Part shown: positions 409 to 40,974 of the stretch, piece by piece | Layout: each line of letters begins with the position of its first letter | Numbering within the stretch: position 1 is the first letter of the stretch | NCBI GenBank assembly: GCA_045118075.1 | Contig: JBGUOI010000202.1 | Span: 7,741-71,740 of the forward strand | From: Porcincola sp. | GTDB taxonomy: Bacteria; Bacillota; Clostridia; Lachnospirales; Lachnospiraceae | DNA: 64,000 nt | Direction: 5' to 3' | The notes under the pieces: generated by a model | What the model saw: the letters and a program-made list of their open reading frames with translations, nothing else | What the model was told of the DNA's origin: nothing | The model's database searches: none | Made by a program: the position numbers and the translations under genes

Positions 409-1545
409 TTATTCCCGGATCGCTTTTTCCAGACGGGCTTTTGAAACGGCCGCCAGTTCCCGTCTCCTGCGGGTGACGGGCTCATAGTCGATCTTGTTTT
501 CTGTGTCAGCTTCTTTCAGCTTTTCAGCCGGAATGTGGCGCTCTTCCAGGCAGAGCGCTTCGAGCAGGTTCATGATCCTGGCATCGTCTCTTCGTTTCCC
601 GCCGGGAGTCATGTCATTTACCGCATAAAATTCTTTCTCAAAGACTGCCGAGATCGCTGTCCCGTGGAATGAATCCGTGACCACATACTCAGCGTTCGCC
701 AGCAGGCTTACAAAGCCGCGCGGGCCCGCATCTCCGGGCGCGAGCCGGATGCTTTTTCGGCAGCGCAGCAGGTCCATGGTCCCCTCCCGGGACACACAGG
801 TATAAACAGGAAGGCCGGTCTTTTCGGAAAATTCCCGTACAGCGCGAAGGGCGCTTTTATTCAGTCTCACCGAATAGAAAAAGATATACGGCTCCTTCAC
901 CGCCCGCGGTGCCAGGATCTTTTGAAAGTCTTCTTTTTCGACCAGCAGCGTGGGATCGGGGTCCGTAAAGACGCTCCTTTCATCTCCCAAAAGCGCGCGA
1001 ACCGCCTCCGCTCCGGTCTTTTCCCGCATGGAAAGATAAGAAAAATCCCGCAGGCATAAGCGGATATAATCACGGTCCTTCGCTTTTTCGAAGGTGCTCT
1101 TTCCGACGCTTACCGCGTAGGAGATCTTTTTGACGTTGTGCACTTCCCCCAGCAGGAACGTAACGTCAAAATCCCTCGCCATGGGATTCCAGATCTGGTC
1201 GCTTCCGCAGACCATCACATCCTTGTCTTCCGTAAAGGTGCTGATGTTGTCGCCGGAGCGGTACCTTTTCTTTCCCAGCGGCAGCTGCTCTTTGCGGAAC
1301 CTGTCAAAGTCGCGGTTCCGGCGCAGATAATAGGGCAGAAGGATCGTGTGCAGAAGATCCGTCGAGATAAAGTTCTTTTTTACAGGCGGATAAAACAGGG
1401 AATACATCTCCCTGTAATGATTCGGTTCATAGTCAATGATCTCCGGGCGTGCCCCCATCTGAGAAAGGATATGAGCCAGCGCCCACGCCTGCAGCGCGGA
1501 ACCGTAATTGATCGATCTGTGAAAAGTGATGATCCCCGTCTTCAC
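409..1545 (-). CDS. polysaccharide pyruvyl transferase family protein (CsaB/WcaK-like)
   Basis: 378 aa. MKTGIITFHRSINYGSALQAWAL at the N-terminus and VVTDSFHGTAISAVF near the C-terminus are hallmark motifs of the family. The GTG start abuts the stop of the GT2 gene. Confidence 0.8.
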   Translation of the reverse strand: MKTGIITFHRSINYGSALQAWALAHILSQMGARPEIIDYEPNHYREMYSLFYPPVKKNFISTDLLHTILLPYYLRRNRDFDRFRKEQLPLGKKRYRSGDNISTFTEDKDVMVCGSDQIWNPMARDFDVTFLLGEVHNVKKISYAVSVGKSTFEKAKDRDYIRLCLRDFSYLSMREKTGAEAVRALLGDERSVFTDPDPTLLVEKEDFQKILAPRAVKEPYIFFYSVRLNKSALRAVREFSEKTGLPVYTCVSREGTMDLLRCRKSIRLAPGDAGPRGFVSLLANAEYVVTDSFHGTAISAVFEKEFYAVNDMTPGGKRRDDARIMNLLEALCLEERHIPAEKLKEADTENKIDYEPVTRRRRELAAVSKARLEKAIRE

Positions 1546-2553
1546 TTACCTATACACCCCCGTCAGGTACACCGGCAGCGCTTGTCCGGTCCCGAGGACC
1601 ACACTGCGCGCTATATTCCTCTTGCTCGGTCTTGATCGCAGGTAGCTGACCATGTATCTTCTCCGCTCGTCTTTCAAAAAACCTTTTATATAACCGATCT
1701 TTTCCTTTCTGCCCAGGCGGCAGGTCGGAAAATCGATCTTTTTCATGCACATCAGCGATGTCTTTCCCTCATTGATCTCCAGGATCTCCCGGCATTCCTC
1801 ATACTCGCCGTAATGTTCATACAGGCCGGTCATGGCCGCGTACATCCTTTTTCTTCTCTCCAGTTCATTGGGATAGAACTTTCCCACCAGCGTATCGGTA
1901 CCCCTGACCATGTACCGATAATAAGGGCTCTGAACGATCCTGACCTTCGCAGAGCATTTAAAAGCTTTCGTGTTAAAGACAAAATCCTCGCCGAGCCGCA
2001 GGTCCTCATCAAATTCCAGGGCATTTTCCCTGACAAGCTGTGTCCGGATCATCCGGTTCCAGATATAACTGAAGAAAACATCCCGCCGGCTGTCCCTGGC
2101 CACTTCCCTTAAAAACAGCTTCATCTCATCCGCCGAGCGGATATCCTTATCCGGAAGCGCCAATGTATCTCTCTTGATTAACCGGCCGGCATCATCGAAG
2201 ACTTCCCTGACCCGGCCGAAGATGACCAGGTCGAAACCTTCCCCCGCTGCTGCCAGCTCCTTAAAGGCGTCCGGGTGAAGCTGGTCGTCTGAATCCATAA
2301 AGTAGAGCCACTCGCCTCCGGCATGGGCGATCCCGGTATTCCTGGCTTTGGACGGTCCCCCGTTCTCCTGCCTGACCAGCCGGATGCGCGGATCTGAGGA
2401 GGCGTACTTTGAAATGATCTCTGCCGATTCATCGGTCGATCCGTCATCGACGGCGATCAGTTCAAAATCGCCGCAGGACTGTTCCTGCAGCGAGCGGATC
2501 GTTTCGGGCAGAAACCCGGCTGCATTGTAGACCGGCATAATTACACTGATCAA
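1546..2553 (-). CDS. family 2 (GT-A) glycosyltransferase
   Basis: 335 aa. VIMPVYNAAGFLPETIRSLQEQSCGDFELIAVDDGSTDES plus a DSDD (DxD) motif. The TTG start lies 6 nt after a GGAGG. Confidence 0.85.
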   Translation of the reverse strand: MISVIMPVYNAAGFLPETIRSLQEQSCGDFELIAVDDGSTDESAEIISKYASSDPRIRLVRQENGGPSKARNTGIAHAGGEWLYFMDSDDQLHPDAFKELAAAGEGFDLVIFGRVREVFDDAGRLIKRDTLALPDKDIRSADEMKLFLREVARDSRRDVFFSYIWNRMIRTQLVRENALEFDEDLRLGEDFVFNTKAFKCSAKVRIVQSPYYRYMVRGTDTLVGKFYPNELERRKRMYAAMTGLYEHYGEYEECREILEINEGKTSLMCMKKIDFPTCRLGRKEKIGYIKGFLKDERRRYMVSYLRSRPSKRNIARSVVLGTGQALPVYLTGVYR

Positions 2554-2564
2554 AAGCTGCCTCC

Positions 2565-3641
2565 TTATCCCTTTGTTATCTTCTCAAGATAGTCCAGTCC
2601 CCGGCGGCGAAGTCTTCCGGCTGTTTCCTTAAGAGCTTCCGCATCGGCCTTGTCGGTCACCAGACCGGTACTTCCAATCCTTACCGCCCTGTCCGGAACG
2701 CCGCATTCCTCCAGCAGTTCCTCTATCCTCCAGGGGGATGTTTTATTCGAAACAAACGTGTTGAAAGACTTCCCGAAAATGACCGAAAACGCGGATCCGT
2801 GGAAAGAATTGGTCACCACATAGGACGCGTTCGCGATCAGCGATAAAAATTCGCGCGGTCCCGCATTTTTCACGACCTCATCCACCTTCCGCCGCGGCCT
2901 CAGGGTCCTGGTTATGAGGACGGTCTTTAAGCCGTATTTTTTTGCCGCCAGAGCGGCGATATCGTAAAGGATATCCATCTCATACAGTGAGTAGATCAGG
3001 ACATATTTCTCCTTATTGTCTTCTTTTATATTAAGCAGCTTTTTCCACTCTTCCCCGCTGTGCAGAAAGACCGGATCGGGAACCACTTCGGCGTTCACGC
3101 CGCACATCTTTTCAAGCTGCCTTGCCGCGTACTCTTCCCTCACCGACACATGGTCAAAAGAGGAAAGCAGTCCGGCGGCCGTATCCGCATCCTCCGGTCC
3201 GAGCGTACCCGCGCCGGCCGCAAACGAGGCTTTTTTACCTTTGGTGACAAAATCAAGGTAATAGGCGGTATCGAAGCCGGTCAGTTTCAGGTTGAACACC
3301 TGGTCACTGCCGGTGATAAACAGATCTTCTTTCCCGTCCAGCTGCGCAATGGTCTTTTTCGTGTATGGACCGACCTGCCGCATTCGTTTTATAAAATTCC
3401 GATAACGGAGCCTTCTGGGAAGAAAGACGGTATTGTAGAAGATATTGTAGACCCTGGCTTTAAGAGGCGTCCCCGCTTTAAAGACCGGTCTGGGCGCATG
3501 CATCGCTTCGATCGCCGGGCAGCGGTAATCGATCAGCGCCGCCTCATGCCCCGCCTCCTCAAGGGCGGAATACAGCGAAAAAGCCTGAAGGACAGCGCCG
3601 GGGTTAAGTGCGTTTGAGAATGTAAGAATGCCCGCTTTCAC
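2565..3641 (-). CDS. polysaccharide pyruvyl transferase family protein, second copy
   Basis: 358 aa. MKAGILTFSNALNPGAVLQAFSL ... VVTNSFHGSAFSVIF. Paralogue of 409-1545. Confidence 0.8.
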   Translation of the reverse strand: MKAGILTFSNALNPGAVLQAFSLYSALEEAGHEAALIDYRCPAIEAMHAPRPVFKAGTPLKARVYNIFYNTVFLPRRLRYRNFIKRMRQVGPYTKKTIAQLDGKEDLFITGSDQVFNLKLTGFDTAYYLDFVTKGKKASFAAGAGTLGPEDADTAAGLLSSFDHVSVREEYAARQLEKMCGVNAEVVPDPVFLHSGEEWKKLLNIKEDNKEKYVLIYSLYEMDILYDIAALAAKKYGLKTVLITRTLRPRRKVDEVVKNAGPREFLSLIANASYVVTNSFHGSAFSVIFGKSFNTFVSNKTSPWRIEELLEECGVPDRAVRIGSTGLVTDKADAEALKETAGRLRRRGLDYLEKITKG

Positions 3642-4938
3642 GTGCCTTGCTCTCCTTTGCTTCCGGAACGGTCAGCGTCAGGAGCACTCCGATAAAGTAG
3701 CTGACCACGAAATTATAGTCATAGAGGGGGTTGCCGCTCATGCAGTACGCCAGAAAAAAGACCTGGAGAAAAATGCCTGCGCCGGTGATGACGCGCTCCT
3801 CTGAATCCGGGTCCGTCAGGACAAGTTTCCGATACCGGTAAGAAGCGGCAAGCAGTATATTCCCCACTGCTGCCAGAAACGCGGCAAGTCCGGCGGCCCC
3901 GGTCTCGCACAGCAGCTGAATATAAACGTTATGGGTCGCGTAGGTATAATCGCTCGTTCCTCCGAATACACCGATCGAGTGCTGGCGGTAGCATCCCCAT
4001 CCGATTCCCGTCAGCCGGTGGCCCTTAAACAGCCTAAACGCCAGCGTATACAGCTGCTGTCGTCCGTTGAGCGTACTTAAGGTTGCGTCTTCCCCGGAAA
4101 AACGGCCCGCCAGCGCGTCGACCGAACTGTGGACCAGCGGAATGAACCGGTAAAGTACGTAAAAACCGATAAGCGCCGCCCCAATGAGAATGACCGTCCA
4201 GATCATCCGGCTGACGTTGATCCTGGCCGCTTTCTCTTTTCGGAATCCGAGAAGCATCAGAAACAGGATGCCTGCCACAAAATCCAGCAAAAATCCGCGC
4301 TTCTGGATGAGCACCGCCGACAGGGCGAAGAGTCCGATCACGCTCCAGCTCAGGATCCAGTTCTTTTCCTTCTTCATCAGGATGATCGCCGCGAAAGCTG
4401 CCAGTCCGTTAAAGATATAATTTCCCGCCGTACCGGTAAAGAGCACCAGGCCGGCCGTGCCGTCCATCTGTCTTTTCAAGGCGACGACTCCGGGCCGGTA
4501 AAGCCCGAAAAAGCCGCTGCGGCAGACGCCGGTCACCTTATCCGCGATCACGGACACGACAATGACAAGACCGCACCACATAAGGCAGCGCAGTATCATT
4601 TTCTTGTTGATCTTTCCGACTGCCATTGACATGCAGATGAGCACGCAGCAGACCATGACCGGGAAATCGTTCTTAAACTGGTCTGTCATCCTCCGGGCAT
4701 TTTCAGCCAGTATAACGATCAGGAATACGATCCAGAAGCCGAAAATACCGAAGGAGAATCTCGGATGCGCAATAAGGCACAGCGCGGTAAGAGCAAACAG
4801 CAGAATGCTCGTCATCGGCAGTCCGTGAAAAAACACGGGTACCCGGAATACCCCCCAGCAGCCCCACAAAAAAGGCCAGAAGGCAAACGCCCATATCAGT
4901 ATATCGTTCAGCCTGATCTTCAATCGCTCATCAGTCAT
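3604..4938 (-). CDS. wzy: Wzy-type repeat-unit polymerase / O-antigen ligase family membrane protein
   Basis: 444 aa multi-spanning membrane protein carrying the Wzy_C-type motif YATHNVYIQLLCETGAAGL. Overlaps the next gene by 38 nt. Confidence 0.75.
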   Translation of the reverse strand: MTDERLKIRLNDILIWAFAFWPFLWGCWGVFRVPVFFHGLPMTSILLFALTALCLIAHPRFSFGIFGFWIVFLIVILAENARRMTDQFKNDFPVMVCCVLICMSMAVGKINKKMILRCLMWCGLVIVVSVIADKVTGVCRSGFFGLYRPGVVALKRQMDGTAGLVLFTGTAGNYIFNGLAAFAAIILMKKEKNWILSWSVIGLFALSAVLIQKRGFLLDFVAGILFLMLLGFRKEKAARINVSRMIWTVILIGAALIGFYVLYRFIPLVHSSVDALAGRFSGEDATLSTLNGRQQLYTLAFRLFKGHRLTGIGWGCYRQHSIGVFGGTSDYTYATHNVYIQLLCETGAAGLAAFLAAVGNILLAASYRYRKLVLTDPDSEERVITGAGIFLQVFFLAYCMSGNPLYDYNFVVSYFIGVLLTLTVPEAKESKARESGHSYILKRT

Positions 4939-4955
4939 TAATGTCCGCCTGTCAG

Positions 4956-6089
4956 TTAAAGCAGCCCGCGGTAGACCACGAGCATTTTCTCACAGTATAC
5001 TTTTTCGGAAAAATGGCTGCCGGCGTAGCGGCAGATCCATTCGGGATCGTACTTATCGTACGTCTCCGTCATTTTTATAAGAGCTTCCTTAAGCTGCCGG
5101 GGGGAGCGGTGGTCCACCGCCATCCCCAGGCGCTCATCGGGGTTGTCCGTGACCACCGTGGTCGTATCGCTCACGATCACCGGTTTTCCGCAGGCCCATG
5201 ATTCTACGACCGGCACGCAGAAAGTCTCCAGAGCGGAAAATCCGACAAACGCGTCGGAAGATCCAATCAGCGCCGCCATTTTCTCATGCGGCACCAGCCC
5301 CGGCAGGAATACCTGCCTTCCGGCATTCCTCTGTTTCACGATTCCGGCGATCCTTCCCATCTCCGGACCGTTTCCCGCTATGGTGAGTGTTACGTCCGGC
5401 CGGTCCTTAAATGCGTCCAGAAAAGCCTCAACCAGAAGATGGTATTGTTTGATGCTGACCATGCGGCCGATGGCAAGGAACCGAAATCCCTCGTGCTGCT
5501 CCTTCGCCGGTTTGAAGTCGCCGTACAGCACATTGGGAACGACAGGCATCTCCCTGTCTGTCCCGGTCATCTCGCGGATGGACTTAACGAGCGCCGATCC
5601 GACGCAGCAAAAAACATCCGCCTTTTCCACATACTCCTTTAAGTTCTCCAGGATCCAGCCGCCGATGGATTTATCCTGCACCCGGCTCCAGTGCTCGGTC
5701 GCGGCGATTTTGACCCCTTTACGCTGATACGGCTCCAGAATGCGGTAAAGAAACGATGACGGGTAGTGCACATGGATGATGTCCGGCAATCCACCCTTTC
5801 GGGCAAGATACCTCATCAGCCGCATAAACATCCTGCGTCTGACTGAAGTAATGTACCTTGACGGAACCAGTCCGCCGGCCGGCCAGGATACGGTCGCTAC
5901 CGACACGCCGTCCTCATTTTTCTCGGAGCAGCCGAATCTGCGCCGCCTTCTGACGGATCTCGGATCCGCGACGAGGTAGGTCACCTCAAGCCCGGCCCGC
6001 GCCAGAGTCTTTGCCTGCTCCAGCTCGAAGGAGCCGAGCCTGTTGTTTTCCGCGCGCGGGTAATCCCGGCCGATGATCCAGACTTTCAT
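4956..6089 (-). CDS. GT-B fold glycosyltransferase (family 4-like)
   Basis: 377 aa. C-terminal FSALETFCVPVVESWACGKPVIVSD matches the GT4 E-x7-E region. Sits in the polysaccharide operon. Confidence 0.8.
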   Translation of the reverse strand: MKVWIIGRDYPRAENNRLGSFELEQAKTLARAGLEVTYLVADPRSVRRRRRFGCSEKNEDGVSVATVSWPAGGLVPSRYITSVRRRMFMRLMRYLARKGGLPDIIHVHYPSSFLYRILEPYQRKGVKIAATEHWSRVQDKSIGGWILENLKEYVEKADVFCCVGSALVKSIREMTGTDREMPVVPNVLYGDFKPAKEQHEGFRFLAIGRMVSIKQYHLLVEAFLDAFKDRPDVTLTIAGNGPEMGRIAGIVKQRNAGRQVFLPGLVPHEKMAALIGSSDAFVGFSALETFCVPVVESWACGKPVIVSDTTTVVTDNPDERLGMAVDHRSPRQLKEALIKMTETYDKYDPEWICRYAGSHFSEKVYCEKMLVVYRGLL

Positions 6090-6102
6090 CCCGTCTCCTT
6101 TA

Positions 6103-6324
6103 TTATTTCTCCATCAGGGCAACGATGTCGCCGACTGTCTCGAAACCGCGGATAATGTCAGCGGTAAGCTTCACGTCGAACTCATCTTCCATCAGAACGA
6201 TCAGGGACAGTTTTGCCATTGAATCGTACTCATCGATATCATCAAGGATCGTCTCGACCGTCAGGTCTCCCTCGTCCAGTTCCAGCATATCCTCGAGCAG
6301 CGCCAGTTTTTCGCGTTCAGTCAT
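6103..6324 (-). CDS. acyl carrier protein-like phosphopantetheine carrier
   Basis: 73 aa, acidic. DEYDSMAKLSLIVLMEDEF contains the D-S-(L/M) phosphopantetheine-attachment serine context. Confidence 0.75.
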   Translation of the reverse strand: MTEREKLALLEDMLELDEGDLTVETILDDIDEYDSMAKLSLIVLMEDEFDVKLTADIIRGFETVGDIVALMEK

Positions 6325-6399
6325 TTTCAGTTTTCCTCCTTAAATGTTGATCTATCTCCCAACCCCTGCTGTGCGGGGGATCGGTCCGTTAATTACTTT

Positions 6400-7476
6400 T
6401 TATTCCTCGTCTTCCGGAAGGTCATCCGGATATCCGTCGTCATAAGTATCGTGTCCGATCGTGAGCGGCAGGATGTCCTTTGCGTTGATCCTGAAATCCA
6501 CCACGCCCCAGGAAAGGCCGATGCCGAACCCGCTGGCGATCAGGAACAGTTCCCTGTCCTCATCGCTTTCTCCGAATCGGTCGACCAAAGAGAGCGGAGC
6601 GGAAGCGCCGCTGGTATTGCCGAAGCGGTCCAGGCAGACCGGAACTTTTTCCATGGGCATGCCCGTGCGCTTGGCGACATTTTTGATGATCATCATATTC
6701 GCCTGATGCAGGGCCATGGCATCATAATCCTCGATCGAAGTGCCGGCCTTTTCGGTAAAGTTTTTGATCAGCTCCGGCACTTCCCGGATGGTGAAGTTGA
6801 AGACGGCAATGTCGTCCCCGGGGATGCTTCCCGGTCCGACCGGATGCTTCCAGCCGTTATAGGGGCTGGCAAGGGCTTTATGGCCGCTGCCGTCGCTCAT
6901 CAGCGCGGTGCGAACGCGCCAGCCCGGCGCTTTCTCGAGCAGAGTCGCGCTGCAGGCATCACCAAAAAGGAGCGCCGTATTGGAAGACCGCTTCTGGTTG
7001 GGGAAACGTCTCTTTCTGGCAAGGGTATCTCCCACGGTCACCAGCGCTTTCGACGCATTGGATGTCTGCAGCAGGGAAGCGGCTAAACTCACGCCGTACA
7101 CAAAGCCGGAGCAGCCCAGGTTGATGTCAAAAGCCAGGCAGTCGTTCGACAGGCCAAGCCTTTTGTGGAGCGCCAGGGCCGTGGACGGTGTCCGGTAGTC
7201 CGGAGTCTGCGTGATATTGATCAGCACGCCGATCTCATCGGGGGTGTATTTCCCGGCCGCTTCGATCTGTTTGGCGGCGGTGTAGGAAAAGTCGGACGCT
7301 GTCTGCGCCATAGTCGATTTTCTTATCTGGGTGATACCGGTATTGCGGATAAAATTCTTGATAAATTTCGGATCTTCCTCGGGATCATCCATTTTCGCCC
7401 GGATGTCGATAACCTGTTCGGGGACGGATGCGGCGATGGCACTGATCCGGATTCCTTCATTCTCAGCATAGATCAT
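6400..7476 (-). CDS. 3-oxoacyl-ACP synthase III (FabH/KAS III)-like enzyme
   Basis: 358 aa. The Cys-His-Asn triad contexts are present: NLGCSGFVYG, ALHQANMMII, LDRFGNTSGASAPL. Confidence 0.8.
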   Translation of the reverse strand: MIYAENEGIRISAIAASVPEQVIDIRAKMDDPEEDPKFIKNFIRNTGITQIRKSTMAQTASDFSYTAAKQIEAAGKYTPDEIGVLINITQTPDYRTPSTALALHKRLGLSNDCLAFDINLGCSGFVYGVSLAASLLQTSNASKALVTVGDTLARKRRFPNQKRSSNTALLFGDACSATLLEKAPGWRVRTALMSDGSGHKALASPYNGWKHPVGPGSIPGDDIAVFNFTIREVPELIKNFTEKAGTSIEDYDAMALHQANMMIIKNVAKRTGMPMEKVPVCLDRFGNTSGASAPLSLVDRFGESDEDRELFLIASGFGIGLSWGVVDFRINAKDILPLTIGHDTYDDGYPDDLPEDEE

Positions 7477-7502
7477 GTGATGTATTCTCCTTTTCTTCTT
7501 TA

Positions 7503-8270
7503 TCAGCAGGACATATATCCGCCGTCGACCGGCAGCTCCACGCCCGTGATCTGGCGTGCGGCCGGTGAGAGGAGGAAGATGATCGCGTTTGCCACATCTT
7601 CCGGTTCGTTCATGCCCAGATAGTTTCTTCCGGCTGTTTTCGGTGCCAGACTCTCCCCACGCATCTCTCCTTTAAGAGCCAGGTATTCCTGATACATTTC
7701 CGTATTAGTCCCTGCCGGGAGAACGTTGTTGAGCCGGATGCCCTTTTCGGCCAGTTCTCTTGCCATGCACCTCATGGCGCCGTTCATGGCAGCTTTCGAG
7801 GCTCCGTAGGCGGCCTGCGCCGAAGCGCCGACATAAGCGGAGATCGAGGAGACTCCCACGATGCTCATGCCTTCATTAAAGCGGCCTTTTTTGCTTAAGA
7901 CCCGCACCATCTCGAAATAGGAGGAGAAATTGGTGCGCATGATCTGATCGAGCCTGGCGGGGGTGTAATTCTTCAGCGGGAGATTGTTCACCGTGCCCGC
8001 GCTGTGCACGTAGCCGTCGAACTTCCCGTGCCGCGAGACCATTTCCTTTACCCGGCCTTCGAGCTCGTCCAGCATGGAGACGTCCAGCACATGCATGCTG
8101 TGGCCTTCCCCCTCCATGGCCGCAAGCGTTTCTTTCAGTCTTTCTTCTCTCCTGCCGGCAATCGCCACCCTGGCGCCCTGCCGGCTTAAAAGGATCGCCG
8201 TACTTTTGCCGATACCGGAGGTGGCGCCGGTGACCAGGATGTGTTTATCTTTCATCTGTAAAAAGTCCAC
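7503..8270 (-). CDS. short-chain dehydrogenase/reductase (FabG-like ketoreductase)
   Basis: 255 aa. LVTGATSGIGKSTA (TGxxxGxG), a catalytic S...YxxxK context (YGASKAAMNG) and NNVLPGT-like NVLPAGTNT. Confidence 0.85.
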   Translation of the reverse strand: MDFLQMKDKHILVTGATSGIGKSTAILLSRQGARVAIAGRREERLKETLAAMEGEGHSMHVLDVSMLDELEGRVKEMVSRHGKFDGYVHSAGTVNNLPLKNYTPARLDQIMRTNFSSYFEMVRVLSKKGRFNEGMSIVGVSSISAYVGASAQAAYGASKAAMNGAMRCMARELAEKGIRLNNVLPAGTNTEMYQEYLALKGEMRGESLAPKTAGRNYLGMNEPEDVANAIIFLLSPAARQITGVELPVDGGYMSC

Positions 8271-8283
8271 TCTGTCACCTCCG

Positions 8284-9375
8284 TTACATCAGCATTTCGG
8301 GAGTGATCTTTCCCTCCCGGTACCAGTCTTTTGTCCGGATCACCGGAAACAGTTTTTCCGTATTGATCTTCGCCGAGGTCACGCCCCAGGAAAGACCTAT
8401 TCCAAAGCCCGCCATCAGGGTGTTCTTCACGCCTTCGTCCGTCCCGCCGAAACGGTGGCAGAGCGTGAGCGGAATGGAGATCCCGCCGCTGTTGCCGTAG
8501 CGGTCCAGGCTGATGGGCACTTTTTCCGCCGAGATCTTCAGCTTTTTAGAAAGCTGCTTGATAATGAAGCGGTTGGCCTGATGGAAAACAAACAGATCAT
8601 AATCATCCGTGCCCGTCTTTGTCCGTTCCAGGAATTCCAGAATGGTCTTCGGAACATCCGAGATCGAAAACGAGAACACGCTTGTCCCCTCCATATAGAT
8701 GTCATATAATGTCCGCTCGATCCCGTCATTGCACAGGAAGCGTTCACGGGGCGGATCCATGTCCCTGAAGCCGCCGGCCGGCAGAATGATGTTCCTGAAC
8801 CGGCTTCCGTCCGTCTTAAGAAGCGCAGGCGTTTTTGCGGTCTCATCGTGCTTAAGCAGGACCGCCGCTCCGGCATCGCCGTACATCATCACAACGGATT
8901 TATCCAGCGGATCGACGACCTTGGAAGCCGTTTCGCCCAACAGCAGGAGGCAGTATTCCATATCCGAGTGTTCCATCAGGCTCATGGCTGTCTGCAGGCC
9001 GTACACGAACCCGGAACATCCCAGCCCAATATCCATGGCCATGCAGTCCATGGGCAGTTCCAGCCGGTGCTGAAGCACGCAGGCTGAAGCAGGCCGCCGG
9101 TAATCCGGTGACTGGGTGATGAAGATCAGTCCCCCGATTTTTTCCCTCCCGATATTCATTTTCTCCAACAGGTGGGAGGCTGCCGCATAGGCCAGATCTG
9201 AGGCCGTCTGCTCGGGAAGCGCCTTGAATGAGCATCTTATGCCCGTTAATTCAGCAAACTTCTCCGGAATGACCGGACCGAAAACCTCATAAAAGCTTTC
9301 TACGGGCACTTCATTATCCGGAACGGCGCAGGCGATTCCCGCGATCCCGATTCCGCTGCTTAAAAGGAAAGCCAC
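8284..9375 (-). CDS. second KAS III (FabH)-like enzyme
   Basis: 363 aa. GLGCSGFVYG, VFHQANRFII and LDRYGNSGGISIPL show an intact Cys-His-Asn triad. Diverged paralogue of 6400-7476. Confidence 0.8.
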   Translation of the reverse strand: MAFLLSSGIGIAGIACAVPDNEVPVESFYEVFGPVIPEKFAELTGIRCSFKALPEQTASDLAYAAASHLLEKMNIGREKIGGLIFITQSPDYRRPASACVLQHRLELPMDCMAMDIGLGCSGFVYGLQTAMSLMEHSDMEYCLLLLGETASKVVDPLDKSVVMMYGDAGAAVLLKHDETAKTPALLKTDGSRFRNIILPAGGFRDMDPPRERFLCNDGIERTLYDIYMEGTSVFSFSISDVPKTILEFLERTKTGTDDYDLFVFHQANRFIIKQLSKKLKISAEKVPISLDRYGNSGGISIPLTLCHRFGGTDEGVKNTLMAGFGIGLSWGVTSAKINTEKLFPVIRTKDWYREGKITPEMLM

Positions 9376-9402
9376 TTGGTATTCCCCTTTCTTCTTTGTA
9401 TT

Positions 9403-11151
9403 TCAACTGTATCTTGATACCGGGTGCTCAGCGAAAAAGCCGCGAATCACGTCCGCCATACGGTCCATATCTTCCGGGCCGTAACGCTGGTCGCAAACCA
9501 GGGAAAGTTCCCGTCCGCGGATCCCTTCCGAGGCGCCCATACGCTCTGCCCAGTGTACGTGACAGAAGATCCCTGCTTCCGACAAGGCTTCGGCAAGCTC
9601 GTTTCTCAAGTTGGCACCCACCAGTACGGGCACCGCCAGAGGACAGTTGTCCTCAATGCTCTCTCGGGTGATCATGAAGGTGAGCCCTTTTGTCTGGTCA
9701 AGACGGCTCATAAGCCTTCGGGCATTCTCTTTTCTCTTTATGATGATTCCGCCGGTATCCTGCTGCTCGAGCAGCTTCACGGACAGGCTGTCCATCTTTG
9801 TCATGCAGTCCGAAAGGACCAGCCATGTCTCAAAACCCTCCGCCTCGATCAGGCAGCTTCGTTTGTCATCCGTCTTTCCGGTCAGGTAATCTTCCTTCTC
9901 CCGCATGGCTTTTGTGACCTGCTGCGTCTTTTCATCTCCCGAAAGGAACGGGCGGATGCTGAGCTTTCCTCTCGTCTTGCCAAGCCAGCCGCCCGAAGGC
10001 AGCGCGAACCATTTGCGCAGGCTTGCCGTATAGTAGTCCGCCGTCTCACTTCCCGGGCGTTTTCCCAGCAATGTGTGGGTCACGTCCTCTATGACGGCGA
10101 TTCCCCTCTTGTGCAGGCGCCTGATCCACTCATCCGTGTAATCCCTGCCGGTGCCGAACCAGGCGCTGACCAGCACCACGTCCGGGCGTTTTTCCGTGTC
10201 GATCTTATATTCAAAGTACTCCCCGTTCCAGGTGACCTCGTAGAATTCATACCGGATGCCCCGCTCGATGAACGGCTGGAGCATACCGAACGAACAGTAG
10301 GACGGCACAAGCGCCTTCTTCACCTTCCGCCCGGAGGCGAGGTCGGCGATCGCCAGTTCAATGGCACATCGGCCGGAGATCGAAAAGACCTGGTCGGACA
10401 CTTTCGGAAGCCAGAGCATCGGATCTGTTTTCGCTCCTTCTTTTCTCACCCGCGGCAGGGAAAATCCGCCGCCAATCTCGGGCCTTCTTCCGTTTTCTCC
10501 CACCGGCAGAACGGTGCCTTCCGTCTCCAGGCGCCGGTAAGCGTTGTATGATAGCAGGTCATTGGTTCCCGGTATGGTTACCTCGCCTTTTTTGAAGACT
10601 TTCATCAGCGTTCCGAGAATCAGCTTAACGTCATACCCGAAAGAGACTTTATCGACATATTCCAGGTCATACTCGTACCGGCTGTTCCAGTCGAGCGCAT
10701 TGCGGCCGTTGATCTGGGCAAGTCCCGAAAGGCCGGGGCGGACGGCAAACCGTTTCCTGAAGCGGTCCGGATAAGCAGGCAGTGTATTCTTGGCCAGCGG
10801 CCTGGGGCCGATGACGCTCATATCGCCCTTCAGGATATTGAACAGCTCCGGCAGTTCGTCGAGGCTCGCCGCACGCATGATCTTTCCAAGACCCGTGACC
10901 CGGTCTTTTTCCGGAAGCAGGATACCGTTCTCGTCTTTAGCGTTCGACATGGTTCTGAACTTGTAGAGATGGAAGATCTTCTCGTCCTTCCCGGGACGGG
11001 TCGGCGAAAAGATGACCGGACTGCCGTGCATGATCCTGACCAGCACGAAAAGGATCAGGAGGACGGGGCTTAATACGATGACCGCCGCGCCGGCACAGAT
11101 CAAATCAAAGATCCGCTTGCCGCGGTCACGGTAAAATGTGTGTTCCGGCAT
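9403..11151 (-). CDS. fusion protein: PglC/WbaP-type phosphoglycosyl transferase (N-terminal ~195 aa) plus a fold-type-I PLP-dependent aminotransferase-like domain (C-terminal ~380 aa)
   Basis: 582 aa. The N-terminus, KRIFDLICAGAAVIVLSPVLL...YKFRTM...DELPELFNILKGDMSVIGPRP...RPGLSGLAQINGR, is the bacterial sugar transferase signature. The C-terminal part has AVIEDVTHTLLG and ASLRKWFALPSGGW, an aspartate and a lysine context typical of DegT/class V-like PLP enzymes. Confidence 0.75.
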   Translation of the reverse strand: MPEHTFYRDRGKRIFDLICAGAAVIVLSPVLLILFVLVRIMHGSPVIFSPTRPGKDEKIFHLYKFRTMSNAKDENGILLPEKDRVTGLGKIMRAASLDELPELFNILKGDMSVIGPRPLAKNTLPAYPDRFRKRFAVRPGLSGLAQINGRNALDWNSRYEYDLEYVDKVSFGYDVKLILGTLMKVFKKGEVTIPGTNDLLSYNAYRRLETEGTVLPVGENGRRPEIGGGFSLPRVRKEGAKTDPMLWLPKVSDQVFSISGRCAIELAIADLASGRKVKKALVPSYCSFGMLQPFIERGIRYEFYEVTWNGEYFEYKIDTEKRPDVVLVSAWFGTGRDYTDEWIRRLHKRGIAVIEDVTHTLLGKRPGSETADYYTASLRKWFALPSGGWLGKTRGKLSIRPFLSGDEKTQQVTKAMREKEDYLTGKTDDKRSCLIEAEGFETWLVLSDCMTKMDSLSVKLLEQQDTGGIIIKRKENARRLMSRLDQTKGLTFMITRESIEDNCPLAVPVLVGANLRNELAEALSEAGIFCHVHWAERMGASEGIRGRELSLVCDQRYGPEDMDRMADVIRGFFAEHPVSRYS

Positions 11152-11163
11152 GATCTCTCCTCC

Positions 11164-12300
11164 TTACAGCAGTTTCTCAAGCGGCGCTTTAAGCTGTTCT
11201 TTGAATGAGCTGATCGAAAAATGAGACTCATAGTAGTCGAATATCCGGTCATGGGAAAGGACCTTTGGGATATCCTTCATCCATTCTCCGTCCGGATCGA
11301 TGTTGACGCCGATCCGGTCCTGCCTTACCATCCGGGCGGTATCTCCGCGGACCGAATTGATCAGAGGCAGTCCCATGGACAGATAATCGATGCTCTTGAT
11401 GGAGAGCCCTACCTCCAGCTTATCCAGGATCATATTGAACCCATAGTCGCAGGGGGCGAGAATCTCGATCTTTTTATTCTCGTCAAAGGTCTTTCCGTGG
11501 AAAGTCACCTCGCAGCCTGTCTTCTTAACTTCCGACAAAAATTCTTCGCTCCGCTCGCCGCCGCCGATCACCTGCATCGAGGTTTCGTATCCCTCTTCCC
11601 TGAAACGGGAGAGTACGCCGCAAATCCCGGCGATGTCGACCAGGTAGTTGATGCTTCCGACGAAGGCAAACCGCACTTTTTTCTCATCACCCGGCTTTCG
11701 CTGCGCAATGACTTTGCGGATTTTTTCTTTCTCCTGCGGGCTTCTCTCCTTGTAGAGCCACAGCGGGCTGATCTTCGATCCGTCCGTCACTTTCGCGAGG
11801 GTGTCCTTATAAAGTCCGCACTCGGTAAAAACATGGTCCGCCGCCTGAATGCTTTTCGTTCTCCAGTTTCTCCAGACGTTCGCCGGCAGGGAATTTGACA
11901 GTCCCCGAAGAGGCATCGATTCGGGCCACATATCGATCACATCGTTGATGTAGATCATCTCCGGGTGCCTTTTTTTATACGAGGCGCAGTAAGATGCTGC
12001 CCTGTTGGGCGGGATCAGCGCATAGATCAGGTCAGGCTTCGCTTTCCTGATGTATCCTTTCACCTTTCCCGAAAAGACCAGGTGGGATAAGATCCGCTGC
12101 GGCGAGAGGTTCTTTTTGTAAGGCGGAACATGGAGATAGGTGCACTCCTCAAGCCGCACTTTGACCGGCGCTTTCACTTCGTGCAGAAAGTCGCTTAAAA
12201 GGACCGTTACCTCAAAGCCCTCCTCCGCAAGAACTTCCCTGACCGTTTTAAGCCGGTTCTGATACCAGCCGAAGCAGCTGACCAGCAGCGCTTTTTTCAT
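11164..12300 (-). CDS. probable GT-B type glycosyltransferase
   Basis: The ORF-track start at 12339 is trimmed to ATG 12300 (MKKALLVSCFGWY). The C-terminal half resembles the GT-B nucleotide-sugar domain (VGSINYLVD..., IDYLSMGLPLINSVRGD). Assignment relies mainly on context. Confidence 0.55.
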   Translation of the reverse strand: MKKALLVSCFGWYQNRLKTVREVLAEEGFEVTVLLSDFLHEVKAPVKVRLEECTYLHVPPYKKNLSPQRILSHLVFSGKVKGYIRKAKPDLIYALIPPNRAASYCASYKKRHPEMIYINDVIDMWPESMPLRGLSNSLPANVWRNWRTKSIQAADHVFTECGLYKDTLAKVTDGSKISPLWLYKERSPQEKEKIRKVIAQRKPGDEKKVRFAFVGSINYLVDIAGICGVLSRFREEGYETSMQVIGGGERSEEFLSEVKKTGCEVTFHGKTFDENKKIEILAPCDYGFNMILDKLEVGLSIKSIDYLSMGLPLINSVRGDTARMVRQDRIGVNIDPDGEWMKDIPKVLSHDRIFDYYESHFSISSFKEQLKAPLEKLL

Positions 12301-12335
12301 CTTCCCGTTCCTTCCCCGGCTCTGTTTTCCGGTGA

Positions 12336-13646
12336 TCACTCAAAGCAGCGGCGGATGATCTGAATGATCCTGTCCTGCTCTTCTATTGTCATCTTGTTGT
12401 CGGACGGCAGGCACAGGCCTCTTCGGAAAATATCCTCTCCGACATCAAAGTTCTCTCCTTCTATATACGCATTTGTCTGCCCGCGTCCGTTTCCGTGCGC
12501 GGTCACAAATGCATTCATCCGGTAGATCGGCTGCAGGTGCATGGGCTTCCAGATGGGTCTCCCCTCGGCATTGAAAGCGCGGAGCGCATCCAGGATCTCA
12601 TCCGGGGAGCTTTTCCCCTTCTCGCTGCGGTACAGGTACTCCCTGTCGCCGCGGACATTCGGAGCCATTGCCTCCTCATTGACGGTCATGCAGCTTAACC
12701 AGAAATTGGGCCGGCTGTTTTGCCTGTCCCAGGGGTTCATCTTTACGGGCAGTCCCTCAAACCCTTTTTCGTACCGCTCCCAGATGGCTTTTTTCCGGGC
12801 GATATGCTCTTTAAGATACGGGAGCTGTCCCCTTACGGTGCCGGCGATCAGGTTGCTCATCCTGTAGTTGTAGCCTACTTCTTCGTGCTGGTACCAGCTG
12901 GCCGCTTCACGGCTCTGTGTGGACCACTTGCGCACTTTATCGGCATCTTCCTTCGAGCCGGTCAGGAACATTCCGCCCGAACTTCCGGTGATGATCTTGT
13001 TTCCGTTGAACGATATGCAGCCGAAATCTCCGGCCGCGCCGGTCTCGACCCATTTCCCGTCAAGCAGGCACTGCGCGCCGAGGCTTTCCGCCGCATCCTC
13101 TACGATCAGGGCATCGTGCCTGGCGCAGATATCCTTGATCTCCTGCATTCTTGCGGGCGTCCCGTACACATGGGCCATAACGACAAGACGCACTCCGGGG
13201 TACTGCTCGAAAGCCCTCCTCAGTGCGTCAGGACACATATTCCATGTTCCGGGTTCAGTATCAATGAATACGGCTTCTCCGTCCTCGTAAGCGATCGGAT
13301 TGACGGTCGCATCAAACGTCATATCCGAGCAGAAGACTTTCTGTCCCGCCAAAGTCCCTTCACTCGGCCGTGCCCGGCCGAAAAGCTTCTCCCCGGCCAG
13401 TTTTATTGCCAGGTGCAGGGAAGCCGTTCCCGAGGAGAGCGCCACCGCATACTTTACACCGGTGAGGGCACACACTTCCTGCTCAACAGCATCAATATTC
13501 TCTCCAAGGGTAGTGACCCAGTTCGATCGGATGGCTTCGCTGATCCAGTGAAGTTCTTCTCCATGCATGGTCGGCGATGCGAGCCAGATCTTCTTCTCGA
13601 AAGGTTCGATCCCGGCAAAGCGCGGATCATTTCTCAGTTCATGCAT
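12336..13646 (-). CDS. DegT/DnrJ/EryC1/StrS family sugar aminotransferase (PglE/WecE-like)
   Basis: 436 aa. ALSSGTASLHLAIKLAG, LIVEDAAESLGA and the PLP-lysine context ISFNGNKIITGSSGGMFLT. Confidence 0.85.
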   Translation of the reverse strand: MHELRNDPRFAGIEPFEKKIWLASPTMHGEELHWISEAIRSNWVTTLGENIDAVEQEVCALTGVKYAVALSSGTASLHLAIKLAGEKLFGRARPSEGTLAGQKVFCSDMTFDATVNPIAYEDGEAVFIDTEPGTWNMCPDALRRAFEQYPGVRLVVMAHVYGTPARMQEIKDICARHDALIVEDAAESLGAQCLLDGKWVETGAAGDFGCISFNGNKIITGSSGGMFLTGSKEDADKVRKWSTQSREAASWYQHEEVGYNYRMSNLIAGTVRGQLPYLKEHIARKKAIWERYEKGFEGLPVKMNPWDRQNSRPNFWLSCMTVNEEAMAPNVRGDREYLYRSEKGKSSPDEILDALRAFNAEGRPIWKPMHLQPIYRMNAFVTAHGNGRGQTNAYIEGENFDVGEDIFRRGLCLPSDNKMTIEEQDRIIQIIRRCFE

Positions 13647-13648
13647 TT

Positions 13649-15700: not shown

Positions 15701-15735
15701 CTTTCAAGGCCTCCTCATAAACTGCAGCGGAATTC

Positions 15736-40922: not shown

Positions 40923-40974
40923 GACGTCTTCTCCTTTAATCAACGGGGATGTCATTCGAGTACATGATTCGATT

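Follow-up and report, generated by a model that had tools for sequence, protein, structure and literature searches.

A probable hydroxyacyl-type ACP cassette without its usual attaching transferase in a Clostridia glycan locus

What would a group of fatty-acid-synthase-like genes supply to a glycan operon, and how would their product reach a sugar if the enzyme that usually attaches it is missing? In the 64-kb stretch of DNA analysed here (hereafter, the window), a cassette at 6103-9375, within one glycan operon on the minus strand, encodes a 73-aa acyl carrier protein (ACP), two KAS III enzymes and a short-chain dehydrogenase (SDR), as the first-pass annotation had described. All other window genes named below lie on the same strand at the coordinates given. 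Intergenic gaps in the cassette are 13-75 nt, an operon-like spacing. Most likely this is a hydroxyacyl module, a kind for which there are inferred examples from fish and plant pathogens, in a copy devoid of the usual attaching transferase. Our preferred reading, to which we assign an even chance, is that the four genes build a short hydroxylated acyl chain on their own ACP for decoration of the first amino sugar of the repeat unit, with attachment by a transferase encoded in trans.

The first cassette gene encodes KASB (8284..9375, 363 aa, Pfam and NCBIfam matches, motifs GCSGF / HQAN / GNSG). It is followed by a FabG-like SDR (7503..8270; adh_short_C2, E 6e-51; KR domain, E 8e-18), which matches FabG models at 1e-41 to 1e-42, under their cut-off, and is predicted to be a 3-oxoacyl-ACP reductase. 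KASA comes next (6400..7476, 358 aa, ACP_syn_III and ACP_syn_III_C, motifs GCSGF / HQAN / GNTS), scoring under the FabH equivalog cut-offs. The ACP (6103..6324; Pfam PP-binding, E 1e-5; NCBIfam ACP models) carries its serine in a DSM motif (DEYDSMAKLSL) and is of the ACP-I type; in every related locus, ACP-I closes the cassette core.

KASA and KASB share about 37% identity, and both hold the Cys112/His244/Asn274 triad, which is invariant across 29 homologues (numbering from E. coli FabH, the reference sequence having been checked as identical to PDB 1HN9). Known KAS III-like acyltransferases such as CerJ, ChlB3 and AfcL instead display a Cys/His/Asp triad (PMC9573744, PMC12186527); retention of the condensing Cys-His-Asn triad thus suggests that both proteins condense, and that neither is likely to be a transferase. 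Among PDB matches at E<=1e-10, the nearest neighbours were uncharacterised KAS III structures, followed by true FabHs, and none was named CerJ, ChlB3, AfcL or DpsC. Neither KASA nor KASB has the residues W32 and R151, with which E. coli FabH grips the adenine of CoA, so the identity of the primer donor is uncertain.

Upstream of the cassette are the genes expected to make and load an amino sugar, with the domains originally assigned to them. The sugar genes are headed by a LytR-CpsA-Psr (LCP) glycopolymer-to-wall ligase (15736..16824; LytR_cpsA_psr, E 4e-13), kept upstream in the related loci L001 and L005. There follow a CapD/PglF-type membrane-anchored UDP-HexNAc 4,6-dehydratase (13649..15700; Polysacc_synt_2, E 1e-114; CoA_binding_3; PseB-like and FnlA-like NCBIfam models) and a DegT/PglE-type sugar 4-aminotransferase (12336..13646; DegT_DnrJ_EryC1, E 3e-70; LegC-like and PseC-like NCBIfam models). 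DegT orthologues 62-79% identical are present in L002, L003, L004, L007 and L024. Between the aminotransferase and the phosphoglycosyl transferase (PGT) lies a GT4-like protein, GT4b (11164..12339), with weak Glyco_trans_1_4 and Glyco_transf_4 matches. Its family comprises 77 proteins, some of which bear the name glycosyltransferase, and a homologue comes after the minimal cassette of L021 (PGT-LbH-ACP-KAS III-SDR) and, in L023, after a PGT/ATP-grasp pair; GT4b probably attaches the second sugar to the lipid-linked amino sugar.

The PGT gene (9403-11151), first annotated simply as PglC-like, does encode a PglC-type small PGT domain (residues 1-195, 10567..11151; Bac_transf, residues 12-187 only, E 3.5e-56), with 50-62% identity to the PGTs that precede the cassette in L002-L007, but the protein is a 582-aa fusion. 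Its C-terminal domain (9403..10566) has no Pfam match; a profile search found WecE at E 0.003, and an AlphaFold2 model (pLDDT 89.6, pTM 0.90) gave, as its best 35 Foldseek matches, sugar aminotransferases/dehydratases only (E about 1e-12). As modelled, this previously unannotated domain is a divergent DegT-like nucleotide-sugar aminotransferase fold, with an invariant Asp in 'IEDxTH' and Lys in 'SLRKW'.

Directly downstream of the ACP in the same operon is a GT4 glycosyltransferase (4956..6089; Glycos_transf_1, E 4e-23), orthologues of which come after the cassette in L001, L002, L007 and L024; a GT4 gene also follows it in L009. The rest of the repeat-unit genes (409..4938) encode a Wzy polymerase (3604-4938, Wzy_C), two pyruvyl transferases (2565-3641 and 409-1545, both PS_pyruv_trans) and a GT2 (1546-2553, Glycos_transf_2). 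The 4 kb past the left end of the window, read from the identical contig L015, encode two FrhB/Fer4 proteins and a 509-aa protein with no Pfam match, presumed to be a Wzx-type flippase; the corresponding protein of L001 looks like a multi-pass membrane protein.

Comparison of 15 loci, 13 of which entered the orthogroup tree (L024 and L025 lie outside it), places the window within a family of related cassettes. KASB is present in all 15, always first, and is the most conserved member (4460 homologues at E<=1e-20; copies from gut Clostridia 65-77% identical). In every locus the cassette is bordered by PGT/amino-sugar genes on one side and by GT, Wzy or flippase genes on the other. The full type, found in 12 of the 15 (L002-L009, L012, L016, L018 and L025, from gut and rumen Clostridia), combines KASB with a NeuD/PglB/VioB-type hexapeptide transferase (LbH), a FabD-like MCAT and an MBL hydrolase; in L009, the LbH scores 172 bits against TIGR03570 (cut-off 160.8) and the MCAT 280.5 bits against fabD (cut-off 260.9). 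These three genes stand in that order immediately upstream of KASB, save in L003 and L018, where a PGT and a flippase, respectively, intervene between LbH and MCAT. In the 11 full-type loci with enough downstream sequence, ACP-I is followed by a second ACP of 80 aa; the L025 sequence stops at ACP-I, and any second ACP there would lie past its end.

Full-type loci carry one or two LbH genes; most have KASA and SDR-A orthologues, and many add further KAS III/SDR pairs, the KAS III:SDR ratios observed being 2:1, 2:2 and 3:3. The KAS III proteins fall into three orthogroups, as do the SDRs. KASA occurs in 11 of the 13 tree loci, as well as in L024 and L025, and SDR-A, to which the SDR of the window belongs, is also present in 10 of those 11, i.e., the two are paired evolutionarily, as is KASC with SDR-C. 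SDR-B has a single position, immediately behind KASB (six of the 13 tree loci); a second SDR, not placed in the SDR tree, directly follows KASB in L025, and a 38-aa SDR remnant does so in L016. Inheritance of KASB with an adjacent SDR as a pair implies that KASB makes a 3-oxoacyl product. L021, whose minimal cassette includes an LbH, has one KAS III only, and its nearest orthogroup is KASB.

The window, L001 and L024 represent a reduced variant, which lacks LbH, MCAT, MBL and the second ACP, half of the usual eight components. Between the window and L001, dN/dS values are 0.078 for KASB, 0.071 for the SDR, 0.050 for KASA and 0.069 for the ACP (96% identical), among the lowest in the locus (DegT, at 0.073, falls within their range), with no stop codons; the three enzymes have dS values of 0.65-0.75, the ACP one of 0.26. 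In L024, the genes are intact and 71-85% identical to those of the window. The reduced cassette is under strong purifying selection and, by these sequence measures, functional.

As first annotated, the locus held no hexapeptide acetyltransferase, and this stands: none was detected by Pfam scans of the principal ORFs up to 58753, by tblastn against the window with relatives' LbH, MCAT and MBL proteins (zero matches), or by HMMs built from 18 LbH, 11 MCAT and 11 MBL sequences against the six-frame translation of the 64 kb (nothing better than E about 1). Neither LbH, GNAT nor any other O- or N-acyltransferase is present in the locus, and no acyltransferase lies in the 4 kb beyond the left end on L015. 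Since LbH, the dedicated FabD, MBL and the second ACP have been lost from the locus, the chain-attaching transferase is most likely encoded elsewhere in the genome, an assumption made from a search that covered 64 kb plus 4 kb. The L001 locus has no PGT at all, which shows that this clade does supply functions in trans.

By analogy with known systems and from its context, the cassette most likely makes a short β-hydroxyacyl-ACP for the 4-amino-4,6-dideoxy-HexNAc of the neighbouring CapD and DegT. In this dedicated, type-II-fatty-acid-synthase-like module, housekeeping FabD would place malonyl on the 73-aa ACP, a dedicated FabD-like gene being absent here. One KAS III would then join acetyl-CoA to malonyl-ACP, giving acetoacetyl-ACP, which the SDR would reduce to 3-hydroxybutyryl-ACP. 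The other KAS III would add a second C2 unit to yield 5-hydroxy-3-oxohexanoyl-ACP, and the same SDR would probably reduce this to 3,5-dihydroxyhexanoyl-ACP. With two C2-adding steps, primer condensation and then the second unit, both KAS III proteins would be condensing enzymes, and their motifs and pairing suggest that they probably do both condense to give a C6 hydroxyacyl-ACP. CapD and DegT would meanwhile turn UDP-HexNAc into UDP-4-amino-4,6-dideoxy-HexNAc, the 4-amino group of which would receive the chain; in relatives, this transfer would fall to the adjacent hexapeptide transferase, the gene for which has been lost here. The PglC-type PGT would move the acylated sugar to undecaprenyl phosphate, prior to extension, pyruvylation, polymerisation and LCP-mediated wall attachment. 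Two caveats apply: the joint loss of four accessory genes in three lineages could mean that the pathway is rewired rather than complemented, and a lone SDR may leave the second keto group as it is, the precedent for one reductase in Flavobacterium psychrophilum resting on gene annotation as opposed to enzymology.

Another reading, which we consider unlikely, is that the 4-amine stays free, as in an AATGal-type zwitterionic polymer with pyruvate ketals as the negative charge, and that the hydroxyacyl chain goes to another acceptor, e.g., as an O-acyl ester or onto a second amino group generated by the PGT-fused aminotransferase-like domain. The two pyruvyl transferases, the lack of an N-acetyltransferase in the locus, and the conserved Lys of that sugar-aminotransferase fold are all consistent with this. 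Bacteroides fragilis PSA and the pneumococcal type 1 polysaccharide likewise combine PglF/PglE-like genes with a free 4-amine. However, the DegT, CapD and PGT proteins have orthologues (50-84% identity) in loci with a PglD-type transferase beside the cassette, an alternative O- or N-acyltransferase is just as absent, and both chemically solved precedents bear their chain on the 4-amine.

Slightly less likely still, in our estimation, is the mechanism proposed in the first-pass annotation, taken here as KASA and the SDR making 3-hydroxybutyryl-ACP and a non-condensing KASB passing the acyl group via its cysteine to the UDP-sugar 4-amine, replacing PglD. One KAS III and one SDR would exactly fit a C4 product; the locus is without any acyltransferase, even as strong purifying selection acts on the cassette in three LbH-less lineages; and KASB, universal and always first, has an invariant Arg at the position of FabH Phe87, in the acyl pocket. 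However, KASB orthologues occur alongside a PglD-type LbH in 12 of the 15 loci, and the SDR directly downstream of KASB in seven loci (SDR-B in six, that of L025 being unclassified) implies a 3-oxo product; 2:2 and 3:3 loci would hold one surplus reductase if KASB did not condense. His244 and Asn274 are kept, and at columns that are otherwise invariant, Y248F and L281I are all that sets KASB of LbH-less loci apart from KASB of loci with an LbH, with no sign of new function. In F. psychrophilum, two KAS III proteins and one reductase correspond to a C6 chain, and a PglD homologue is present as well. What survives of the original proposal, on analogy and context, is thus a hydroxyacyl-ACP-derived decoration of an amino sugar, but neither transfer by a KAS III nor a C4 chain from one condensation. 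It is highly improbable that the product is a free lipid or small polyketide with no link to the glycan, or that the cassette is a remnant decaying after transferase loss: four usual components are missing and the window holds no gene able to release or transfer the product, but the genes are among the most constrained of the locus (dN/dS 0.05-0.08), intact in a third lineage, closely spaced, and flanked by sugar genes in 15 of 15 loci.

Among known systems, the Vibrio cholerae O1 rfbK-O genes provide an ACP-dependent N-acyl side chain (tetronate) for the amino sugar perosamine. They share ACP-dependent amino-sugar acylation with our preferred reading, but use acyl-CoA-ligase-like, alcohol dehydrogenase and LuxC/LuxE-like enzymes and are not known to include a KAS III. 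CerJ, ChlB3 and AfcL resemble the KAS III proteins of the window in their thiolase / KAS III fold and active-site cysteine, accept acyl groups from carrier proteins (PMC9573744, PMC12186527) and, for AfcL, form an amide bond, the chemistry originally proposed; aside from their differing triad, none acts on a nucleotide sugar amine. The viosamine island of Pseudomonas syringae (vioA-vioS-vioB-vioR-acp; orfA-E in P. aeruginosa PAK) places an ACP, a KAS III and a 3-oxoacyl-ACP reductase beside a sugar 4-aminotransferase, as in the window, and its vioR, vioB and vioA mutants lose the N-(3-hydroxybutanoyl)viosamine residue (PMC3927599). There, however, one KAS III makes a C4 chain, and an LbH transferase, VioB, is both encoded and required; dTDP carries the sugar, and an O-linkage joins the glycan to flagellin.

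The closest precedent, the F. psychrophilum O-polysaccharide locus, encodes WfpB (PglC-like), WfpC (KAS III, 333 aa), WfpD (ACP), WfpE (KAS III, 350 aa, 33% identical to WfpC), WfpF (FabG-like), WfpG (PglD-like), PglE and PglF (PMC6519341, Table S1). Its sugar, chemically established as D-Qui2NAc4N(3,5-dihydroxyhexanoyl) (MacLean et al. 2001, as cited by Cisar et al. 2019, PMC6519341), is the N-acyl bacillosamine also found in V. cholerae O100 (PMC12024518). The likeness, at the level of gene content and annotation, extends to the PglC-type PGT, the dedicated ACP (73-76 aa), the two diverged KAS III proteins (33% identical there, 37% here), the one FabG-like reductase and the pglE/pglF-like genes. 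The genes are arranged in another order, however, in a Gram-negative host of the Bacteroidota whose polymer is an LPS O-chain, and WfpG, predicted to transfer the chain from ACP to UDP-sugar, is without a counterpart in the window. The full-type Clostridia cassettes, which none of the retrieved papers describes, differ in adding the LbH, MCAT, MBL hydrolase and 80-aa second ACP, but share with the window an orthologous KASB, ACP-I, the amino-sugar and PGT genes, and a placement between PGT and GT/Wzy genes.

On the reverse strand, positions 409-16824 of the window form a single tightly packed operon, in which an LCP ligase gene (15736-16824) is first in transcription order, followed by those for a CapD/PglF-type 4,6-dehydratase (13649-15700; Polysacc_synt_2, E 1e-114), a PglE-type DegT aminotransferase (12336-13646; DegT, E 3e-70), a weak GT4-like glycosyltransferase termed GT4b (11164-12339), and a 582-aa phosphoglycosyl transferase (PGT; 9403-11151; Bac_transf, E 3.5e-56). 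With intergenic gaps of 13-75 nt, the four-gene cassette then encodes the KAS III enzyme KASB (8284-9375), a FabG-like short-chain dehydrogenase (SDR; 7503-8270; adh_short_C2, E 6e-51), a second KAS III, KASA (6400-7476), and a 73-aa ACP (6103-6324; PP-binding, E 1e-5). After the ACP, Pfam identifies, in order, a GT4 glycosyltransferase, Wzy, a pyruvyl transferase, a GT2 and a second pyruvyl transferase. ORF coordinates and domain searches agree in every particular with the description of the cassette and its neighbours in the first-pass annotation. For GT4b, the listed GTG start yields 391 aa; a 98%-identical database protein (P0121) begins 13 codons later, at MKKALLVS (378 aa), and translation probably begins there. 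The CapD/PglF gene of another sample of this species (L019, 6716-8652) is split in the gene calls between two ORFs (167 and 480 aa), reflecting a frameshift variant or else faulty assembly.

That annotation had also reported the locus to be devoid of a hexapeptide acetyltransferase, an absence that holds across the 64-kb window. HMMs were built from proteins of related loci, representing hexapeptide acyltransferases of the NeuD/PglB/VioB (PglD) type (LbH; 18 sequences), FabD-like proteins (MCAT; 11) and the MBL hydrolase (11), and were searched against all 64 kb translated in six frames; no LbH was detected (best E 1.3), nor by tblastn or Pfam, and neither MCAT nor MBL had a match. Pfam revealed no hexapeptide acyltransferase among the principal ORFs up to 58753, those at 35-58 kb being only sugar/tricarboxylate transporters, regulators and dehydrogenases; an acyltransferase elsewhere in the window was rejected on these Pfam scans and the six-frame LbH, MCAT and MBL searches. 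An acetyltransferase encoded just outside the window, named in the first-pass annotation as fatal to its own interpretation, is likewise missing from the adjoining 4 kb to the left, where a contig with identical proteins (L015) encodes only a 509-aa protein and two FrhB/Fer4 proteins. The former has no Pfam match, its counterpart in the related locus L001 reads as a multi-pass membrane protein, and it is presumed to be a Wzx-type flippase. The transferase gap in the window locus is real.

Several further features of the region were recorded. The operon's two pyruvyl transferases, of the polysaccharide type, lie at 409-1545 and 2565-3641, and the FrhB/Fer4 (F420-hydrogenase-beta-like) gene pair lies just beyond the left end of the window (L015, 3887-6241); in L009, a comparison locus, both domain types are joined in one 757-aa protein. 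Two very large secreted proteins with signal peptides (1966 aa, 16858-22758; 2098 aa, 25416-31712; both reverse strand) flank a Wzz/tyrosine-kinase-like gene; the two are rich in Tyr, Asp, Glu and Gly and contain YD/RHS-like repeats, Pfam RHS_repeat being reached only by the 2098-aa protein, and homologues of the 1966-aa protein are likewise found, with an LCP gene, upstream of the cassette in L001 and L005. Pfam assigns the products of the window's right half to transport, regulation and sugar catabolism. Positions 32987-64000 have no relation to the glycan locus and comprise genes for a GH3 glycosidase, a sugar ABC transporter, an AraC regulator, TctABC with a 2-hydroxyacid dehydrogenase, dihydroxyacetone kinase, RpiB, a second sugar ABC system and a histidine kinase/AraC-type response regulator pair; a 356-aa ORF at 39885-40955 has no Pfam match.

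Two operon products were considered as the missing transferase. The PGT has its Bac_transf catalytic domain at residues 12-187, as in PglC-type small PGTs, and runs ~390 aa beyond this into a DegT-fold domain; it is therefore a PglC-type fusion variant. The ~350-aa C-terminal domain (9403-10566, reverse strand) is recognized by fold, with no Pfam match: residues ~230-582 score 11.5 bits against PF01041 (E 0.17), under the cut-off of 19.8. Its family comprises 31 proteins (18 PGT fusions and 13 free-standing). The PLP-type cofactor residues, Asp in "IEDxTH" and Lys in "SLRKW", are invariant; a profile search reached WecE at E 0.003. An AlphaFold (AF2) model from 26 sequences (pLDDT 89.6, pTM 0.90) was compared with the PDB using Foldseek, and the top 35 matches, among them 7N63, 3BCX, 2OGA, 2FNU and 4ZTC, are all DegT-family nucleotide-sugar aminotransferases/dehydratases (E ~1e-12, TM ~0.6). 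The domain is thus predicted from the model to have the fold type I sugar-aminotransferase fold, as a second aminotransferase-like domain in the locus. Besides having this fold, it coexists with LbH pairs in L004, L007, L012 and L025 and is absent from L001, and was therefore rejected as the missing transferase. GT4b was rejected as a disguised acyltransferase, its family consisting of GT-B-type glycosyltransferases that follow small PGTs in varied loci.

The cassette has many relatives: a search with KASB yields 4460 homologues (E<=1e-20), of which many are 65-77% identical and come from gut and rumen Clostridia. Fifteen loci were compared (the window, L001-L009, L012, L016, L018, L024 and L025), 12 of which share a full-type order of one or two LbH genes, a FabD-like gene, MBL, KASB, a variable set of SDR and KAS III genes, one or two copies of the ACP family of the window (ACP-I), and a second, 80-aa carrier protein (ACP-II). 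LbH directly precedes the FabD-like gene in 10 of these 12, with a PGT (L003) or flippase (L018) intervening in the others. ACP-II, with its WDSV and WDSVAHLSLISELED motifs, follows ACP-I in all 11 full-type loci that reach far enough downstream (L009, 13629-13871; L012, 15960-16202; equivalents in L002-L008, L016 and L018), L025 ending at ACP-I and so standing outside this count. In L009, the LbH scores 172 bits against TIGR03570 (NeuD/PglB/VioB; cut-off 160.8) and the FabD-like protein 280.5 bits against TIGR00128 (fabD; cut-off 260.9), both above threshold.

Neighbour-joining trees of 13 loci, to which L024 and L025 were assigned in addition, resolve three KAS III orthogroups (KASA, KASB, KASC) and three SDR orthogroups (SDR-A, SDR-B, SDR-C). 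KASB is present in all 15 loci, KASA in 11 of the 13 tree loci plus L024 and L025, and KASC in five of the 13 plus L025. Each has a characteristic partner: KASA is accompanied by SDR-A and KASC by SDR-C, and SDR-B (six of 13 tree loci) occurs only immediately after KASB; L025 has a second SDR gene directly after KASB that lies outside the SDR tree. KAS III and SDR genes stand at 3:3 in L004, L005, L012 and L025 (e.g., L012, 10001-16202; L025, 7992-13834), 2:2 in L002, L003 and L007, and 2:1 in the window, L001, L006, L008, L009, L016, L018 and L024. In L016, a 38-aa adh_short_C2 fragment (4761-4877) between KASB and the next SDR appears to be an SDR-B remnant, left as a 2:2 cassette recently turned into a 2:1 one. 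A minimal cassette, L021, consists of a PGT, a PglD-type LbH, an ACP, one KAS III, an SDR and a GT4b homologue; this KAS III is nearest to KASB and, as the only one in its cassette, must be the condensing enzyme.

A reductase for each KAS III is what would be expected if every KAS III performed one decarboxylative condensation, leaving a 3-oxo group. The 2:2 and 3:3 loci suggest one condensation per KAS III, with chains extending to C8 (perhaps trihydroxyoctanoyl), and the gene numbers fit C4, C6 and C8 chains. Possibly, one, two or three pairs, each acting once, place C4, C6 or C8 poly-hydroxyacyl groups on commensal surface glycans; no C8 (trihydroxyoctanoyl-like) decorations from such loci were described in the literature retrieved. 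What the comparison shows is a predicted side-chain module that is widespread in gut and rumen Clostridia and modular, with one to three KAS III/reductase pairs.

For the window, the explanation we favour, and to which we assign an even chance, is that KASA and KASB act successively in two condensations to give a C6 hydroxyacyl-ACP. The product would be 3,5-dihydroxyhexanoyl, or its 3-oxo form if the lone SDR acts once; an N-acyltransferase from a gene outside the locus would attach it to the 4-amine of the sugar made by CapD and DegT, and FabD, too, would be supplied in trans. The length of the chain, the order in which the enzymes act, the acceptor and the transferase are inferred; seen directly were gene content, motifs, orthogroups, co-occurrence, gene loss and selection. 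One may also propose that the 4-amino group stays unacylated and that the hydroxyacyl chain goes elsewhere; we hold this to be unlikely.

The first-pass annotation had proposed a chain of C4 or longer, made by one KAS III and transferred to the sugar by the second; we considered this with a C4 chain and KASB as the transferase. Its interpretation is supported in part, the acyl side-chain module having its match in wfpC-F of the Flavobacterium psychrophilum O-polysaccharide locus, and its observation that the Cys-His-Asn triad is intact in both enzymes holds: Cys112, His244 and Asn274 (numbered after an E. coli FabH sequence that proved the same as PDB 1HN9) do not vary across the 29 aligned sequences (13 KASB, 11 KASA, 5 KASC). 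KASA and KASB are ~37% identical, and both contain the motifs GCSGF, HQAN and GN(T/S) and, like housekeeping FabH, the GFG-x-G oxyanion loop ("GFGIGLSWG"). The triad itself, the KAS III/SDR pairing and the coexistence of KASB with LbH all speak against KASB as N-acyltransferase; in that role it would leave one surplus reductase in each 2:2 and 3:3 locus and an adjacent PglD-type enzyme without a role. The KAS III-like acyltransferases CerJ, ChlB3 and AfcL instead have a Cys/His/Asp triad (PMC9573744, PMC12186527). The nearest PDB relatives of KASA and KASB are 4EFI and 3GWA (uncharacterised KAS III) and then true FabHs (E 1e-30 to 1e-39), with no molecule named CerJ, DpsC or ChlB3 among the matches at E<=1e-10; by this ranking, both enzymes are closer to FabH than to those acyltransferases. 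In this form the proposal is improbable, kept alive by a transferase gap that is real.

KASA and KASB nevertheless differ from housekeeping FabH: both score below the cut-offs of the FabH models NF006829 (196.7 and 203.1, respectively; cut-off 249) and TIGR00747 (157.8 and 168; cut-off 292.1). Trp32, Arg151 and Arg249 of E. coli FabH, which we take to be the CoA-adenine clamp (Trp32/Arg151) and an ACP-docking residue (Arg249), are replaced by K/K/F in KASB and N/S/M in KASA, and the clamp is missing from all three orthogroups. The Phe87 position is Arg in KASB, Thr in KASA and Ile/Lys/Leu in KASC; that of Leu142 is Ala, Leu and Ser, respectively. These differences would fit, short of proof, with distinct, hydroxylated and possibly ACP-borne primers. 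A more general form of the transferase proposal is that a KAS III with a canonical triad, most plausibly KASB, delivers the hydroxyacyl group from ACP to the 4-amine of a nucleotide- or lipid-linked sugar in LbH-less loci, and perhaps in all of them. We regard this as a long shot; were it true, it would constitute the first thiolase-fold N-acyltransferase in glycan biosynthesis, where we know of none, and would make the PglD-type enzyme dispensable.

Three loci, namely the window, L001 (Lachnospiraceae bacterium UBA4348) and L024, are reduced, with LbH, MCAT, MBL and ACP-II all missing; the joint loss of ACP-II with the LbH, FabD-like and MBL genes hints that the four act together. KASB of L001 is 90% identical to that of the window, and L024 shows identities of 71% for KASB, 76% for KASA, 80% for the SDR, 85% for the ACP and 68% for the PGT fusion. 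Between the window and L001, dN/dS is 0.050 for KASA, 0.069 for the ACP, 0.071 for the SDR and 0.078 for KASB (dS 0.65-0.75 for KASB, SDR and KASA, and 0.26 for the ACP), among the lowest values of the locus; DegT (0.073) falls in the same range, and the glycosyltransferases and Wzy lie at 0.14-0.25. That the cassette is a relic, or makes an unrelated lipid, is very improbable given this purifying selection and the conserved context, pseudogenisation being rejected on dN/dS of 0.05-0.08 and the intact L024 locus. At columns invariant in full-type loci, the reduced type differs only by Y248F and L281I in KASB and by V255A, L313I and T314A in KASA, none at the active site; these columns give no sign of a new activity in either enzyme after transferase loss, and neofunctionalisation of KASB in LbH-less loci was rejected on its just two conservative lineage-specific changes. 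In L001, GT4b abuts KASB directly (8816-11092) and the locus has no PGT gene; its initiating transferase must therefore be encoded elsewhere, such that supply from elsewhere in the genome is a fact in this clade. A metagenome scan with GT4b found no further reduced loci.

The N-acyl groups of bacillosamine-type sugars are dominant antigenic determinants. Dihydroxyhexanoyl has been studied as part of the key epitope of Vibrio cholerae O100 (PMC12024518), and in F. psychrophilum it belongs to the O-polysaccharide repeat on which the serotypes of that species are based. At least one lineage has kept its synthetic core strongly constrained in the absence of four customary companions: the transferase, the malonyl transferase, the hydrolase and the second carrier protein. 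The system thus offers a tractable test of how a hydroxylated intermediate is handed over between discrete KAS III enzymes and by what route the finished chain reaches the amino sugar. Should the chain be attached without an LbH enzyme, this would be new enzymology; should it not, the locus would be an ordinary member of its family with a transferase elsewhere in the genome. Earlier literature already foresees the general function; enzymological study is merited by the strongly conserved LbH-less form and by the one-KAS-one-reductase modularity in commensal Clostridia.

In F. psychrophilum, the O-polysaccharide locus encodes WfpB (PglC-like), WfpC (KAS III, 333 aa), WfpD (ACP, 76 aa), WfpE (KAS III, 350 aa, 33% identical to WfpC), WfpF (FabG-like), WfpG (a PglD homologue), PglE and PglF (PMC6519341, Table S1). 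The polysaccharide repeat includes D-Qui2NAc4N bearing a 3,5-dihydroxyhexanoyl acyl group, whose synthesis the authors attribute to wfpC-F and whose transfer they attribute to WfpG (PMC6519341); V. cholerae O100 has the same N-acyl bacillosamine (PMC12024518). The viosamine island of Pseudomonas syringae, with one KAS III (vioS), a reductase (vioR), an ACP and an LbH (vioB), yields N-(3-hydroxybutanoyl)viosamine, and the sugar is lost in vioR and vioB mutants (PMC3927599). Through these precedents, this kind of system is known as gene assignment plus product chemistry; our literature search for a biochemical study of such cassettes retrieved only annotation-level papers. Unlike the wfp locus, in which wfpG is present, the window has no PglD-homologous acyltransferase beside its cassette. 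It nonetheless shares with wfp (i) two diverged KAS III enzymes with condensing triads (37% identical in the window; 33% for WfpC/WfpE), (ii) a dedicated small ACP and a FabG-like 3-oxoacyl-ACP reductase in the operon, and (iii) an adjoining PglC-type PGT with PglE/PglF-type aminotransferase and dehydratase. The window cassette is a side-chain module of the wfpC-F kind from which the neighbouring transferase and loading genes have been lost.
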